Shown one piece after another: positions 4,482 through 9,302 of a DNA stretch of 10,241 nucleotides (positions within the stretch are counted from its first letter, which is position 1; each line of letters opens with the position of its first letter). The translations under genes and the position numbers were made by a program. The DNA is from a virus. The DNA lies in UHGV virus genome UHGV-1549180; one strand, 5' to 3'. The notes below the pieces were generated by a model. The model did no database searches and was not told where the DNA came from. It worked only from the letters and a program-made list of their open reading frames with translations.

Positions 4482-4712
4482 TTAAGCGGCCATTAATTCA
4501 GGCCAGATGCTTTCCCAATCAACCGGATGAAGGTCTTTGCGAGTCACTTCACCATTGCTGAACCTCTCAATCAGAACACAAAGTGCTGCGCCCAATTCAT
4601 GATTACGGCTAAGTGCTTTCCTCAAATAGCCGATAGAAGTTCCGCACTTGGTGGCAAATTCTCTCTGCTCTTCCAGTGAAAGGGAGTTCAGATACAAGCG
4701 GAGTTCTTCCAT
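4482..4712 (-). CDS. cro: Cro-like HTH regulator (first gene of the PR operon)
   Basis: 76 aa with an HTH-like segment (EFATKCGTSIGYLRKAL). Divergent from cI across the operator region. AGGAG lies 8 nt upstream of the ATG. Confidence 0.65.
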   Translation of the reverse strand: MEELRLYLNSLSLEEQREFATKCGTSIGYLRKALSRNHELGAALCVLIERFSNGEVTRKDLHPVDWESIWPELMAA

Positions 4713-4744: not shown

Positions 4745-4815
4745 AGTTTACCTGTAGGTAAAAAAGCAAATCAATACCCATAGGTTATTTACCGGCAGGT
4801 AATCAAAGATAGAAT
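4745..4815. promoter_or_regulatory. OR operator region with divergent PR (minus strand) and PRM (plus strand) promoters
   Basis: Operators TTACCTGTAGGTAA (4748-4761), weaker ATACCCATAGGTTA (4774-4787) and TTACCGGCAGGTAA (4789-4802). PR on the minus strand: -35 TTGATT (4769-4774), 18-bp spacer, -10 TAAACT (4745-4750). PRM on the plus strand: -35 TTTACC (4788-4793), -10 TAGAAT (4810-4815), giving a leaderless or near-leaderless cI start. Confidence 0.65.
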
Positions 4816-4821
4816 TAAATC

Positions 4822-5508
4822 ATGGATAAATACGAACAAAGACGACTAAGGCTGATAGAGATAAGAGACCGATTCTGTAATGGAAAGGCCTCAGAGTTGG
4901 CTCGTCGAATAGAAAGGGAACCATCATACGTTTCCAGAATGCTGTATCCGGAAGGAAAAAGCGGAAAAAAACGCATTGCTGACGATATGATGGAACTAAT
5001 TGAAAAATCTTTTAATCTCCCACGCGGATGGATGGACATGCTTGCAGATGGTAAAGCTGGAGCTACGGACCATCTTGAGTTTGCGGGTAACGTTCGTGCG
5101 GGTTTTGTTCCGGTAATTGGTGAAGCCGTTTTGGGAGTTGATGGCTCAGTGGATATGATTGAATTCAGATCCGGTTGGTTAAGCATCTACAGCGGCGATA
5201 AAGATGCTTACGGTCTGAAGGTTAAGGGTGACAGCATGTGGCCAAGGATTCAGTCAGGAGAATATGTTGTTATTGAACCAAATACGCCAGTACATCCAGG
5301 TGATGAAGTCTTTGTAAGGACCAAAGACGGTCACAACATGATAAAGATCATGAACAAAACAAGAGACGGTGATTATCAGTTTAGTAGCATAAACAGTGAT
5401 CACCGCCCAATCACTCTTCCTGTTGAAGAAGTTGATAAAATGCATTTTGTTTCAGCTATTGTGAAACACACCAGGTACGTAGACCAGGACGATCTGCCAA
5501 AAGTTTGA
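4822..5508 (+). CDS. cI: CI-type prophage repressor (N-terminal HTH, C-terminal LexA-like S24 autopeptidase domain)
   Basis: 228 aa. C-terminal domain has the S24 signature (GDSMWP ... GEYVVIEP ... GDEVFV, with the catalytic Ser in GDSM). No SD before the ATG, consistent with a leaderless PRM transcript. Divergent from cro. Confidence 0.85.
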   Translation: MDKYEQRRLRLIEIRDRFCNGKASELARRIEREPSYVSRMLYPEGKSGKKRIADDMMELIEKSFNLPRGWMDMLADGKAGATDHLEFAGNVRAGFVPVIGEAVLGVDGSVDMIEFRSGWLSIYSGDKDAYGLKVKGDSMWPRIQSGEYVVIEPNTPVHPGDEVFVRTKDGHNMIKIMNKTRDGDYQFSSINSDHRPITLPVEEVDKMHFVSAIVKHTRYVDQDDLPKV

Positions 5509-5522
5509 GGATAAAGCAGCAA

Positions 5523-5819
5523 ATGTTTATACCCGGCATAGTAGTCGCTGTTGTAATCATCTGCTTCATATGGGCAAAGTTATCTCCTGTAAGCTCTAAG
5601 CATACAGCTGAACTCATGAGGAAGAAGAATCTTATACATGAGGCAGAATCGATAATTAAAAAGTTCAAAGGCATGTCATACGACGACATGTCATCAGAGC
5701 AGATTGCTATGTATAAATGCGCCATTGAGCGCCTTGACTACTTAAACGGACTCAAACCCAAACACACCCCAGTAGAATCAAAATTGCCGCAATGGCCAAG
5801 CAATCCAAATAGCTTCTGA
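5523..5819 (+). CDS. cI-cotranscribed single-pass membrane protein (98 aa), candidate superinfection-exclusion / lysogenic-conversion gene
   Basis: ATG at 5523 with GAGGA upstream (the track's 5505 start is a TTG overlapping the cI stop). N-terminal TM helix (FIPGIVVAVVIICFIWAKL) followed by a charged soluble domain. An intrinsic terminator follows directly. Several ATA codons. Confidence 0.55.
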   Translation: MFIPGIVVAVVIICFIWAKLSPVSSKHTAELMRKKNLIHEAESIIKKFKGMSYDDMSSEQIAMYKCAIERLDYLNGLKPKHTPVESKLPQWPSNPNSF

Positions 5820-5828
5820 CATCTCCTT

Positions 5829-5853
5829 TCAGCCCGCAAAGCGGGCTTTTTTA
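5829..5853 (+). terminator. rho-independent terminator ending the cI operon
   Basis: CAGCCCGC-aaa-GCGGGCTG-type GC stem followed by TTTTTT (5847-5852). Plus-strand specific. Confidence 0.75.
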
Positions 5854-5915
5854 TATCAATCCAAAAAATTAATTACCTGAAAATTCAAGCAGGTAAACTC
5901 TCACATCAATTTTAT

Positions 5916-5957
5916 TTACCTACAGGTATAGACATGGGTTTTACCTGTAGGTATATT
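5916..5957 (+). promoter_or_regulatory. OL operators and PL promoter
   Basis: Operators TTACCTACAGGTAT (5916-5929) and TTACCTGTAGGTAT (5941-5954), same family as OR, centres 25 bp apart. PL: -35 TAGACA (5929-5934), 17-bp spacer, -10 TATATT (5952-5957), overlapped by the second operator. Confidence 0.65.
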
Positions 5958-5997: not shown

Positions 5998-6028
5998 CGC
6001 TCTTAAAAATTAAGCCCTGAAGAAGGGC
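5998..6028 (+). promoter_or_regulatory. nutL (boxA + boxB)
   Basis: CGCTCTTAAAAATTAAGCCCTGAAGAAGGGC: boxA CGCTCTTAA and the boxB hairpin GCCCTGAAGAAGGGC, as in lambda nutL. Confidence 0.85.
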
Positions 6029-6200
6029 AGCATTCAAAGCAGAAGGCTTTGGGGTGTGGTGAAGGGTTCATGGATGGGAATATGTCGCACGTAAAGCGGC
6101 GAGGCCTGCGGAACTATTGCCGAATTGAAGTCGGCCGAAGCAGGTCGAAATGGGTCTCCCACCTACCACACCACCAAAGCTAACTGACAGGAGAATCAAG

Positions 6201-6533
6201 ATGGATGCACAAACACGCCGCCGCGAACGTCGCGCAGAGAAACAGGCTCAATGGAAAGCAGCAAATCCCCTGTTGGTTGGGGTAAGCGCAAAACCAGTTA
6301 ACCGCCCTATTCTCTCGCTGAATCGCAAACCGAAATCACGAGTAGAAAGCGCACTGAATCCGATAGACCTTACGGTGCTGGCTGAATACCACGAACAGAT
6401 TGAAAGCAACCTGCAACGTATTGAGCGCAAGAATCAGCGCACATGGTACAGCAAGCCACGCAGTGAAATGGGTGTGACTTGCTCAGGCCGCCAGAAGCAA
6501 CGCGGAAAATCAATTCCAGCTTATTACGATTGA
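6201..6533 (+). CDS. N: antitermination protein N
   Basis: Begins MDAQTRRRERRAEKQAQWKAANPLL, the arginine-rich boxB-binding motif of lambda N, and is near-identical to lambda N over most of its length (from memory). AGGAG at 6189-6193. The ORF-track start at 6150 is an upstream extension. Confidence 0.9.
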   Translation: MDAQTRRRERRAEKQAQWKAANPLLVGVSAKPVNRPILSLNRKPKSRVESALNPIDLTVLAEYHEQIESNLQRIERKNQRTWYSKPRSEMGVTCSGRQKQRGKSIPAYYD

Positions 6534-6733: not shown

Positions 6734-6820
6734 ATGGAAGAAGAATTTGAAGAGTTCGAAGAGCATCCGCAGGATGTGATGGAACAATACCAGGATTATC
6801 CGTATGACTACGACTATTGA
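6734..6820 (+). CDS. 28-aa hyper-acidic micro-ORF (MEEEFEEFEEHPQDVMEQYQDYPYDYDY)
   Basis: Preceded by the same GAGGTGAG SD-like motif. Its 3' end overlaps the start of the ral-like gene. Could be a coupling or leader ORF. Confidence 0.3.
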   Translation: MEEEFEEFEEHPQDVMEQYQDYPYDYDY

Positions 6821-7004
6821 TAAGAATCAATGGTGTGGACAATTCAAGCGATGCAATGGATGCAAGCTGCAATCGGAATGCATGGTTAAGCCTGAAGAAA
6901 TGTTTCCTGTAATGGAAGATGGGAAATATGTCGATAAATGGGCAATACGAACGACGGCAATGATTGCCAGAGAACTTGGTAAACAGAACAACAAAGCTGC
7001 CTGA
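6804..7004 (+). CDS. ral: Ral-like restriction-alleviation protein (66 aa, Cys4 pattern C-x5-C-x2-C-x5-C)
   Basis: The sequence MTTTIDKNQWCGQFKRCNGCKLQSECMVKPEEMFPVMEDGKYVDKWAIRTTAMIARELGKQNNKAA matches lambda Ral as I remember it, and it sits downstream of N as in lambda. Recall-based. Confidence 0.6.
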   Translation: MTTTIDKNQWCGQFKRCNGCKLQSECMVKPEEMFPVMEDGKYVDKWAIRTTAMIARELGKQNNKAA

Positions 7005-7140
7005 TAGTGGCCTTTATTTTTGGCATAAATAACAGAATAAACACTGCACTGTGTATTCATTCCAACGAGTGAATACACGGAGCAATGTCGCTCGTAACTA
7101 AACAGGAGCCGACTTGTTCTGATTATTGGAAATCTTCTTT

Positions 7141-7167
7141 GCCCTCTAATGTGAGGGCAATTTTTTT
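7141..7167 (+). terminator. rho-independent terminator inside the PL operon (tL-like, expected to be read through under N)
   Basis: GCCCTC-taatgt-GAGGGC stem-loop followed by AATTTTTTT. The next gene's SD (GGAGGA, 7171-7176) follows immediately. Confidence 0.7.
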
Positions 7168-7179
7168 GACGGAGGATAT

Positions 7180-7491
7180 ATGAAATTACGTGTCTGGCAT
7201 ATCCCGCAAGTACCTATGAAACCGTTCATTGTAGAAGTGGCAAGTGTTGAAGAGGGTGTTCGCCTGATGGATGCACTGGCTGATTATGACGCCTTTCAGT
7301 ATGACAACAACATCAAGCCTGACTACTGCAATGCTAACGGCCTTGAGATGTGGGATGAGAGCCTTACTGATGAAGATTTATCAGATATGGGGCTTACGGA
7401 TCGCTGGGTAGATTGGTACAGCGAATGTCAATGTTACGACGACCCACGTAAATATATCGAAAGCCTGAAAGAAGAAATCTCAGCCGCCTAA
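7180..7491 (+). CDS. strongly acidic hypothetical protein (103 aa)
   Basis: Strong SD (GGAGGA). By my count 23 Asp/Glu against 9 Lys/Arg. Lies between ral and cIII in the PL operon. Confidence 0.6.
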   Translation: MKLRVWHIPQVPMKPFIVEVASVEEGVRLMDALADYDAFQYDNNIKPDYCNANGLEMWDESLTDEDLSDMGLTDRWVDWYSECQCYDDPRKYIESLKEEISAA

Positions 7492-7566
7492 GCGCGGCTT
7501 TACCGCATACCAATAACGCTTCACTCGAGGCGTTTTCGTTATGCAATCAAACAGAAGGAGCATCCT

Positions 7567-7737
7567 ATGCAACAGTTCGCTATTGCAGGGGCGGCATCGG
7601 TTCGCCCTTTCAACCCAATTTTATCGGTACAGCATTCACGAAAAAATATTTTAACCGGAGCAGACTTTAAACAACCAAGAATGAAAAGTTTGCTCGAAAA
7701 GCTTTGGGATATTTTGAAACAACAAGGCCGTCCATGA
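7567..7737 (+). CDS. cIII: CIII-like protein (protects CII from FtsH)
   Basis: 56 aa. Begins MQQFAIAG (lambda CIII begins MQYAIAG as recalled) and has a central amphipathic segment SLLEKLWDILKQQG. AAGGAG lies 6 nt upstream. Confidence 0.6.
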   Translation: MQQFAIAGAASVRPFNPILSVQHSRKNILTGADFKQPRMKSLLEKLWDILKQQGRP

Positions 7738-7892
7738 GTTTTACGGATAACTGGTCAGACGAAGAATTCATTCGTCAGATGAAAGAATTAATCGGTAACG
7801 AAGGAGATATTCATGTCACTTGCAACCACAGTGAAGGAGAGCAAGTTACAGAGACGCATGTACACGCAGAAAGCTCTCTGGTATCGCCATAA
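7734..7892 (+). CDS. 52-aa ORF in the kil slot, translationally coupled to cIII
   Basis: ATG overlaps the cIII stop (ATGA). Acidic; no family recognised. Overlaps the alternative ORF 7813-7983 in another frame. Confidence 0.3.
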   Translation: MSFTDNWSDEEFIRQMKELIGNEGDIHVTCNHSEGEQVTETHVHAESSLVSP

Positions 7893-7983
7893 TGGTGACC
7901 GCGAAGGAATGCGGGTATGCCTTAATTTGTCCCGAGTCGAAGTATTAAATCAGCGTTATTTCCTTGGGCCGTGTCCATTCTGA
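7813..7983 (+). CDS. 56-aa ORF in the kil slot (MSLATTVKESKLQRRMYTQKALWYRHNGDREGMRVCLNLSRVEVLNQRYFLGPCPF)
   Basis: Strong SD AAGGAGAT 6 nt upstream. Stops 10 nt before the erf ATG. Below the ORF-track cutoff. Confidence 0.4.
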   Translation: MSLATTVKESKLQRRMYTQKALWYRHNGDREGMRVCLNLSRVEVLNQRYFLGPCPF

Positions 7984-7993
7984 GAACAATCAT

Positions 7994-8599
7994 ATGAGCA
8001 AAGAATTTTACGCAAGACTGGCAGCTATTCAGGAGAATCTGAACGCGCCAAAGAATCAGTACAACTCATTCGGTAAATATAAATACAGAAGCTGCGAAGA
8101 CATTCTTGAAGGCGTTAAGCCGCTACTGAATGGCCTGTTTTTATCAATCAGCGATGAAGTTGTGTTGATTGGTGATCGGTATTACGTGAAAGCCACGGCA
8201 ACTATTACCGATGGCGAAAACAGTCATACGGCAACCGCCCTTGCACGAGAGGAAGAAAGCAAGAAAGGAATGGATTCTGCACAAGTTACTGGAGCTACAA
8301 GCTCTTATGCACGCAAGTATTGCCTCAATGGTTTGTTCGGCATAGATGATGCGAAAGATGCAGATACAGACGAGCATAAACATCAGCAGAACGCAGCAGC
8401 AAAGCAATCAAAGCCATCACCTACACCTGAACAGGTTTTAAAGGCATTCACTGACGCAGCAATGCAGAAAAACACCGTAGAAGAGCTTAAACAGGCGTTC
8501 GCCAAAGCGTGGAAGATGCTCGAAGGCACACCGGAGCAGCACAAAGCGCAGGACGTTTACAACATCAGACGAGATGAATTAGAAGGAGCGGCTGCTTAA
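7994..8599 (+). CDS. erf: Erf-family single-strand annealing recombinase
   Basis: From the internal ATG at 7994 the protein begins MSKEFYARLAAIQENLNAPKNQYNSFGKYKYRSCEDILEG, which matches P22 Erf as I recall it. 201 aa. Confidence 0.8.
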   Translation: MSKEFYARLAAIQENLNAPKNQYNSFGKYKYRSCEDILEGVKPLLNGLFLSISDEVVLIGDRYYVKATATITDGENSHTATALAREEESKKGMDSAQVTGATSSYARKYCLNGLFGIDDAKDADTDEHKHQQNAAAKQSKPSPTPEQVLKAFTDAAMQKNTVEELKQAFAKAWKMLEGTPEQHKAQDVYNIRRDELEGAAA

Positions 8600-8982
8600 T
8601 GGCACATTCGATTACTGTAAGACTAAACAAGCCAGCAAGAGAGTTTCAGGCCGGGGAAAATATCGGATTCAACATCCGTGCTGGCGTTCAGTATTACGAT
8701 CGCCAGACAAAAAAGAAAGAATGGACAAACTACAGCGCCGTTGTATTTGCCAAGCCGGGAGCGCAAGCGGATTACTACCGTAGTGTTCTTGTTGAAGGTG
8801 GCATTGTAGAAATTACCGGAGAAAACATCAGGGTTGATGTTTATCAGGGGCAAAATGGTCAATCAATCACTCTTGAATTACTGAATGCAAAGATTGGATT
8901 TGCAACTTCAGGAAACAGCCAACAGCAGCAAAGTAGCAATCATCAAAATCATCCTGAATACGACGATTCAATTCCCTTCTAA
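8599..8982 (+). CDS. ssb: short phage SSB-like single-stranded DNA-binding protein
   Basis: ATG overlaps the erf stop (TAATG). OB-fold-like pattern (EWxxxSAVVFAK ... GGIVEITGENIRVDVYQGQNGQ) and the acidic C-terminal tail DDSIPF, characteristic of SSB. Confidence 0.7.
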   Translation: MAHSITVRLNKPAREFQAGENIGFNIRAGVQYYDRQTKKKEWTNYSAVVFAKPGAQADYYRSVLVEGGIVEITGENIRVDVYQGQNGQSITLELLNAKIGFATSGNSQQQQSSNHQNHPEYDDSIPF

Positions 8983-9005
8983 AGTAGCAACATAAGGATT
9001 CCATT

Positions 9006-9302
9006 ATGCCAGCGCCTCTGTATGGTGCGGACGACGCGCGCCGCTGTTCCGGCAATTCCGTATTGGAGGTGCTGGATAAATTCAGAAAAAACTACGACCT
9101 GATAATGTCGCTACCGCAGGAAACGAAAGAGGAAAAGGAATTTCGTCATTGTATATGGCTTGCAGAGAAACAAGAACGCGAGCGAATTTACCAGACATCA
9201 ATCCGACCATTCCGCAAAGCCACATATACCAACTTCCCTGAATATATCGACCCGCGTCTGCGTAATTACCGCTCACGCTATGGCGCTATCAGTAATGACT
9301 GA
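9006..9302 (+). CDS. hypothetical protein (98 aa)
   Basis: AAGGA lies 7 nt upstream. Intact ORF in operon order after ssb. No family recognised. Confidence 0.5.

Follow-up and report, generated by a model that had tools for sequence, protein, structure and literature searches.

What does a prophage gain from a small gene placed directly behind its repressor? The question is raised by a 10,241-nucleotide stretch of the virus genome UHGV-1549180 (the window), in which a 98-amino-acid open reading frame (ORF), here called famA, follows a cI-type repressor gene in a lambdoid immunity region whose 'leftward' direction is the + strand of the window. The gene order is cI, famA, terminator, left operator and promoter (OL/PL), nutL and N, and the lambda map reads the same with rexA-rexB in the place of famA. 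Sequence comparisons argue that famA is a genuine gene of a small membrane-protein family, PHROG 10450, whose members are confined to two genomic positions, one directly after one cI family and the other convergent on ejection gene 16 of P22-like phages. We tentatively favour the reading, which we hold at somewhat below an even chance, that the famA protein is a lysogen-expressed inner-membrane superinfection-exclusion factor interfering with genome delivery at the inner membrane.

famA is a conserved cistron behind cI

The famA frame begins with ATG 5523 and ends with TGA 5817-5819, and 14 nucleotides separate it from the cI stop codon (TGA 5506-5508). The immunity region is 98.8% identical in phage mEp043, where the cI protein is identical to that of the window and famA is recorded as a 'hypothetical protein'. 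Close copies from E. coli and IMG/VR loci were compared with those of mEp043 and the window, 37 in all, and every one had an intact frame, which starts with ATG in 28 and with GTG in 9. The segregating sites of famA over these copies were 10 synonymous and 10 non-synonymous (mostly conservative), and those of cI in the same comparison 20 synonymous and 9 non-synonymous over 228 codons. Pairwise ratios of non-synonymous to synonymous divergence (dN/dS) within the close copies were 0.14-0.20 for famA, and a close pair differed in this gene by 7 synonymous versus 4-6 non-synonymous changes. Homologues at 30-45% identity kept the length, the N-terminus and the motifs of the protein.

That famA is a chance ORF or a dead remnant, not translated at all, could be argued from its annotation, the RefSeq Prokaryotic Genome Annotation Pipeline (PGAP) having left it blank in 38 of 40 carrier E. 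coli genomes among the matches listed, and from the rather long spacing of 10 nucleotides between its Shine-Dalgarno-like sequence and the start codon. Such an origin is hardly credible in view of the intact frame and the purifying selection, as well as of the distant homologues, which share length, start and motifs and possess strong AAGGAGG sites, whereas the antisense ORF at 5456-5725 is not conserved in relatives. Judged by these comparisons, famA is a genuine gene and more than a chance ORF. Surveys that depend on annotation, defence surveys included, will miss this family, which is mostly unannotated in RefSeq and uses GTG starts in 9 of the 37 copies. One carrier E. coli genome holds a truncated 67-amino-acid call for famA, and in one IMG/VR locus (L043) the cI frame is disrupted while the downstream membrane-protein gene is intact.

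The start is fixed at 5523 because the N-termini of the homologues align there and because, in phage N7, stop codons and an AAGGAG lie directly ahead of the start of the family gene. Full-length members start with M/V-[YFW]-I at this position, with the hydrophobic segment directly after it, and homologue starts are preceded by GAGGA or AAGGAGG at 6-8 nucleotides; the N7-type genes described below as clade B have AAGGAGG in common, 6-7 nucleotides ahead of GTG or ATG. The TTG start at 5505 in the GenBank record of mEp043 (104 amino acids) was rejected, its extension not being conserved in homologues. An earlier, sequence-only reading of this DNA had recognised the 98-amino-acid ORF from ATG 5523 shortly after the cI stop, with one N-terminal transmembrane helix and a strong intrinsic terminator at once after it, and all three observations stand. 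Its description of the gene as 'fused' to cI does not, famA being a separate cistron, and the coordinate 5505 that it gave as a beginning is the upstream TTG of the mEp043 record. It had also ascribed many rare codons to both genes, which is right for ATA (5 times in each) and wrong for AGG (once in famA versus 5 times in cI).

The terminator stem (5831-5847) contains 6 G-C pairs and has a predicted energy of -12.6 kcal/mol (z = -3.45 versus shuffled sequences), and there is no terminator between cI and famA, so that the layout is that of repressor-operon cargo, or a moron. Because nothing separates famA from cI, co-transcription of the two from the PRM-like promoter in the lysogen would be the natural reading. 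The -10 element of that promoter ends 6 nucleotides before the cI ATG (4822), and the cI mRNA would therefore be leaderless, as in lambda.

The family is small and lacks an annotated function

The famA protein matched PHROG 10450 with E = 3.7e-54, residues 1-98 aligning to profile positions 1-98 of 98, and the same profile matched ORF14 of phage N7 (3.2e-52) and the divergent protein P0009 (9e-24). By these matches famA belongs to PHROG 10450, a small, uncharacterised enterobacterial-phage family whose annotation names no function. When 1.84 billion representative proteins were searched exhaustively with HMMER, 11 matched at E <= 0.001, and seven of these (55-150 amino acids) we took as family members; three long ones (350-1309 amino acids, each matching in several partial stretches) were taken as spurious. 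A profile search of a 5.8-billion-protein set found 25 proteins, the named sources being E. coli, E. fergusonii and Salmonella, and a scan of species-representative genomes with the alignment of window-type proteins (clade A, below) gave a single locus, in Escherichia sp. E1V33. Family proteins are 97-114 amino acids long, and ten alignment columns are invariant: K34, I38, E40, A41, M56, C66, A67, L71, W91 and P92.

The sequence-only reading had not recognised the protein, and PHROG 10450 remains the only family to which it could be assigned. Scans of the famA protein and of family members against Pfam and NCBIfam gave zero matches, and no PADLOC-DB 2.0 model matched the window protein or N7 ORF14 at E <= 1. 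A sequence-profile search of the PDB returned nothing but matches at E > 3 to designed helical filaments, which we took as compositional. A Foldseek search of the AlphaFold model against BFVD and PDB gave none at E <= 0.001, the best being generic helical hairpins. Direct profile comparison by hhalign yielded probabilities of 0.2% with P22 SieA, 0.3% with lambda RexB, 0.3% with lambda SieB and 1% with HK97 gp15; there is thus no sequence similarity to SieA, and the SieA motif FxRYPxEAxxFNK is absent from the family alignment. In the literature on mEp043, WP_000470488, cI-downstream cargo and exclusion in P22-like phages, no study of famA was found.

A predicted membrane anchor with a cytoplasmic domain

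The famA protein has one hydrophobic segment, at residues 2-18 (Kyte-Doolittle 19-residue mean up to 2.5), with zero charged residues ahead of it and 5 K/R in the next 20 residues. The same charge pattern was found in all 15 family members compared, none of which carries a charge ahead of the transmembrane segment and which have 3-7 K/R in the 20 residues that follow. By the positive-inside rule, the protein is therefore predicted to be N-out, C-in, with about 78 residues at the cytoplasmic face. A cleavable signal peptide is less likely, a basic n-region being absent and the hydrophobic stretch being 16-20 residues long in all 15 members, and a type I toxin was rejected, the protein being too long and possessing a conserved soluble domain. 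In the AlphaFold model built from the 15-sequence alignment (predicted local distance difference test, pLDDT, 77.7; predicted template modelling score, pTM, 0.56), a long helix at 5-47 includes the transmembrane segment and is followed by a second helix at 58-76 and an extended tail with the invariant W91-P92; the model predicts a cytoplasmic helical hairpin after the anchor.

Two positions, two clades

Clade A, made up of the window type together with relatives as distant as 34% identity, was found in 52 of the 5426 complete E. coli genomes (about 1%). Its genes lie directly after the same cI family and ahead of OL/PL-N in 52/52 of these genomes, and the position is the same in L007, L008 and 33/33 loci obtained from IMG/VR and by scanning species-representative genomes; in none of the 85 loci did a clade A gene stand beside an unrelated repressor. 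The module is not bound to one virion type, mEp043 being a lambda-like siphovirus with Cor and the early-left operon of the window being P22-like.

Clade B comprises N7 ORF14 and its relatives in P22-like podophages, and occurs in 57 of 5426 complete E. coli genomes (about 1%). These genes converge on ejection gene 16 at its 3' end in N7, in L004, L006, L009-L011 and in E. coli E2865, as well as in 25/25 IMG/VR loci, and their place and orientation are exactly those of sieA in P22. What stays constant is the neighbouring gene 16, also in the locus L076 at 37-41% identity; the upstream neighbours are variable, with a mosaic junction about 40 bp ahead of the start codon. The immI genes mnt, arc and ant are close to many clade B genes; at several loci, no mnt or ant of the N7 type lies within 5 kb. 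None of the clade B loci contains a P22-type SieA, and ORF15, the upstream neighbour in N7, is not SieA-like either. In P22-like phages the PHROG 10450 family thus appears to replace sieA. The divergent member P0009 has gp7-like and gp20-like genes beside it, at an apparent prophage-host junction. Both paralogues were found on one 38,108-bp contig (IMGVR_UViG_2563366933_000009), clade A after cI (L026) and clade B at gene 16 (L070).

Two further observations concern the surroundings of clade B genes. In phage N7 (L002, 3860-3895) a perfect 11-bp inverted repeat, GCTGCATGATT ... AATCATGCAGC, lacking a T-run, lies between ORF15 and the family gene. In the P22-like prophage L004, the sieA region holds a second gene for a small membrane protein, at 2554-2886 and just 5' of the family member; its match is to PHROG 6324, with weak ones to holin and hemolysin families.

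famA evolves faster than its neighbours

Between the window and the loci L007, L008, L049 and L050, synonymous sites were saturated for cI, cro and famA. Amino acid identity over these comparisons was 83-85% for cI (dN 0.10-0.13) and 82-91% for cro (dN 0.07-0.14), and 35-43% for famA (dN 0.52-0.65). In the unsaturated pair L008/L050, cI gave dS 0.37, dN 0.009 and a dN/dS ratio (omega) of 0.025, and famA gave dS 0.60, dN 0.164 and omega 0.27. The gene has thus long been retained beside its cI while evolving about 10 times faster in omega, under net purifying selection. Such a rate fits a gene engaged in an arms race, as it would a small protein under weak constraint.

A proposed exclusion factor at the inner membrane and its alternatives

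We infer an exclusion role because the family occupies just the rexAB slot and the sieA slot, because its P22-like carriers are without a P22-type sieA, because famA evolves far faster than its neighbours, and because a single phage carries a pair of diverged paralogues, suggestive of distinct specificities. The sieA position of clade B points independently to a lysogen-expressed exclusion role. In the proposed mechanism, the observed succession of PRM-like promoter, cI, 14-nucleotide spacer, famA and terminator would deliver the protein from an operon with the repressor, by way of a cI message without a leader, in the lysogen. The uncharged N-terminus is predicted to be periplasmic and the remaining 78 or so residues to fold in the cytoplasm as a helical hairpin with the W91-P92 tail, from where the protein would hinder incoming phages, in a SieA-like manner, in the final step of delivering their genomes. 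A wider version of this proposal, held with less confidence, is that PHROG 10450 may be a new exclusion family acting from the cytoplasmic face, which substitutes for SieA in sieA-less P22-like phages and, in one lambdoid immunity module, for RexAB, and has fast-diverging alleles with different phage specificities. Such alleles, if they exist, would explain why one phage carries two paralogues, one per slot.

Several points weigh against an exclusion role at the inner membrane. No PADLOC match and no fold or sequence similarity to known exclusion proteins was found in the searches above, and most of the protein is predicted to lie in the cytoplasm, hence not in direct contact with a periplasmic conduit. 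Clade A is tied to one cI family and so looks more like a fixed part of one immunity module than like free-moving defence cargo. The omega of famA is below 1, and its fast rate could reflect nothing more than low constraint. The position is weak evidence by itself, given that the same slots hold genes with other roles. Finally, the carrier mEp043 is a lambda-like siphovirus, and any target must therefore be broader than P22-type ejection proteins.

The retention of famA with its neighbours over saturated synonymous divergence, the many roles served by lysogen-expressed morons and the lack of a defence-database match are also what one would expect of a lysogenic-conversion factor outside defence, which would modify a host inner-membrane process (transport, stress tolerance or envelope signalling) and raise the fitness of the lysogen. 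We consider this unlikely, though worth keeping in mind: both conserved positions are classic exclusion slots, and the linkage of clade B to gene 16 in 25/25 loci is hard to explain by host fitness. Defence by another route would be provided by an abortive-infection effector or sensor of the RexB/SieB type, inert in the lysogen, which upon infection would oligomerise or open the membrane and kill the cell before phage release. Its slot is that of rexAB and bstA, both of them abortive-infection systems, a predicted membrane anchor with a cytoplasmic domain would be able to sense a phage product, and the gene evolves fast. However, the protein has a single transmembrane helix, no partner gene and no similarity to RexB or SieB, and the sieA slot is known for an entry blocker and not for abortive infection (PMC10883804), which makes such an effector quite unlikely.

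The strict association of clade A with one cI family in 85/85 loci, and the nearness of many clade B genes to mnt, arc and ant, would be accounted for if the protein served the immunity or lysogeny circuit as an accessory, for instance by modulating repressor cleavage, FtsH/HflKC-type proteolysis or prophage induction from a tether in the membrane. This we regard as distinctly improbable, because the constant neighbour of clade B is gene 16 and not immI, several of its loci lacking N7-type mnt/ant within 5 kb, and because an omega about 10 times that of cI and cro is unlike that of a co-adapted regulatory partner. Exclusion at the inner membrane therefore remains the reading that we prefer, tentatively. 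The sequence-only reading had proposed a candidate defence or exclusion determinant, which is borne out in part: the gene is real, lies in the rexAB slot and falls in no characterised family. Its suggestion to look for the same ORF beside unrelated cI genes gave a mixed result, clade A being found only ever after the same cI family (52/52 and 33/33) and a diverged clade in the sieA position. The rexAB position that it assigned agrees with the lambda map, but its parallel with a sieB-type slot fails, sieB lying elsewhere, beyond N on the opposite strand.

If famA does encode an exclusion protein, it would represent a new protein family in a familiar role, which is in itself not surprising to a specialist; the two-slot distribution is unusual, and the candidate is well supported and easily testable. 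Lysogen-expressed prophage genes are among the main sources of resistance to phages in natural E. coli and Salmonella, yet only a handful of exclusion proteins are understood. The crossing of the inner membrane by phage DNA is still poorly understood even for P22, and famA, small, easily cloned and present in many diverged alleles, would offer a compact genetic handle on it; if the reading is true, escape mutants could name the step of inner-membrane delivery that is targeted. The absence of an exclusion phenotype would be a warning against inferring function from slot position alone.

Organisation of the immunity region and early-left operon

The features of the window are collected in Table 1. 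The operator motif between cro and cI recurs 5' of N at the OL2- and OL1-like sites, and the nutL elements CGCTCTTAA and GCCCTGAAGAAGGGC match the lambda nutL boxA and boxB motifs. The terminator scan had flagged GCCCTGAAGAAGGGC as a - strand hairpin, which is actually the nutL boxB.

Table 1. Features of the immunity region and early-left operon in the window
Feature	Position	Strand	Remarks
Cro-like gene	4482-4712	-	
OR-like operator cluster between cro and cI, three 16-bp TTTACC-N4-GGTAAA sites	4747-4803		sequence reading
PRM-like promoter, TTTACC-16-TAGAAT	4788-4815	+	consensus scan; function inferred
cI-type repressor, S24 peptidase C-terminal domain, 228 amino acids	4822-5508	+	Pfam PF00717, E = 1.4e-17; PHROG 4 'transcriptional repressor'
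Shine-Dalgarno-like GAGGA	5508-5512	+	10 nucleotides ahead of the start codon; sequence reading
famA ORF, 98 amino acids, predicted single-pass membrane protein	5523-5819	+	PHROG 10450
Intrinsic terminator (t-imm equivalent)	5831-5853	+	7-bp stem, 3-nucleotide loop, T6
Inverted repeat TTACCTG-N10-CAGGTAA, OL3 position	5873-5896		conserved in the window, L007, L008, L049 and L050
OL2- and OL1-like operators	5915-5930, 5940-5955		overlap the PL-like promoter
PL-like promoter, TAGACA-17-TATATT	5929-5957	+	scan and sequence reading
nutL	5998-6028	+	boxA CGCTCTTAA 5998-6006; boxB GCCCTGAAGAAGGGC 6014-6028
Antiterminator N	6201-6533	+	Pfam PF11438, E = 1.6e-26; PHROG 271
ral	6804-7004		
'Superinfection exclusion' protein	7180-7491		PHROG 1510
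erf	7964-8599		
ssb	8599-8982		
abc2, anti-RecBCD	9006-9302		

The terminators of the related loci look complementary. A GC hairpin with a T-run directly follows the gene in the window and L007 and is absent in L008, L049 and L050; in these last three, the OL3-position repeat TTACCTG-N10/11-CAGGTAA is followed by a T-run that is absent in the window and L007. The repeat may thus double as operator and terminator.

The segment between nutL and N (6047-6180) is matched at about 96-97% identity in roughly 1100 E. coli genomes, mostly without annotation, and these matches far outnumber the genomes with the immunity region of famA. It contains the long-range complementary runs TTTGGGGTGTGGTG ... 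CACCACACCACCAAAG. A conserved N-leader structure is known from lambda, and the segment is probably one of that kind. At the gathering thresholds of Rfam, zero matches were obtained anywhere in the window, this leader included. Further downstream, the early-left operon (6804-9302) is P22-like and not lambda-like, with a gene-17-like protein, erf and abc2 all in it, and the phage of the window may be a P22-like mosaic.

Comparison with known systems

famA is a full-length member of PHROG 10450 with no point of difference, and that family is itself without annotation or study. A functional parallel may be drawn with SieA of P22 (PHROG 7745), likewise a prophage-encoded inner-membrane protein (predicted in the case of famA). 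The place of sieA at the 3' end of gene 16 is taken by clade B and not by the window gene, which adjoins cI and so does not lie between genes 16 and 9. SieA is a multi-pass protein of 163-164 amino acids, whereas the famA family is single-pass and 97-114 amino acids long, and SieA blocks DNA injection by P22-like phages, whereas exclusion by famA is proposed on the grounds given above. The best-conserved motif of SieA is predicted to be cytoplasmic (PMC10883804), as is the bulk of the famA protein. Mutations that escape SieA map to gp16 and gp20 (PMC10883804), and sieA is found in only 22 of 66 P22-like phages (Leavitt et al. 2024, PMC10883804).

HK97 gp15 resembles famA as a small moron-encoded protein with its own terminator after the gene, but is 62 amino acids long and encoded within the tail gene cluster. 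SieB differs in the site of its gene, famA lying between cI and OL/PL. RexAB of lambda acts by abortive infection. It occupies the same slot between cI and OL/PL, with the same PRM operon logic and a terminator followed by N, but consists of two genes, for the sensor RexA and for RexB, a multi-pass protein of 144 amino acids, whereas famA is a single gene. BstA of the Salmonella prophage BTP1 is similarly encoded directly 3' of the prophage cI, whose promoter it is considered to share, and has a Rho-independent terminator of its own (PMC8585504); by contrast, BstA is soluble, carries a putative KilA-N domain (PMC8585504) and is unrelated in sequence to the famA protein. The interval between cI and N in which famA lies is a hotspot that holds both rexAB and bstA, which share there the strongly expressed promoter of the repressor (PMC8585504).

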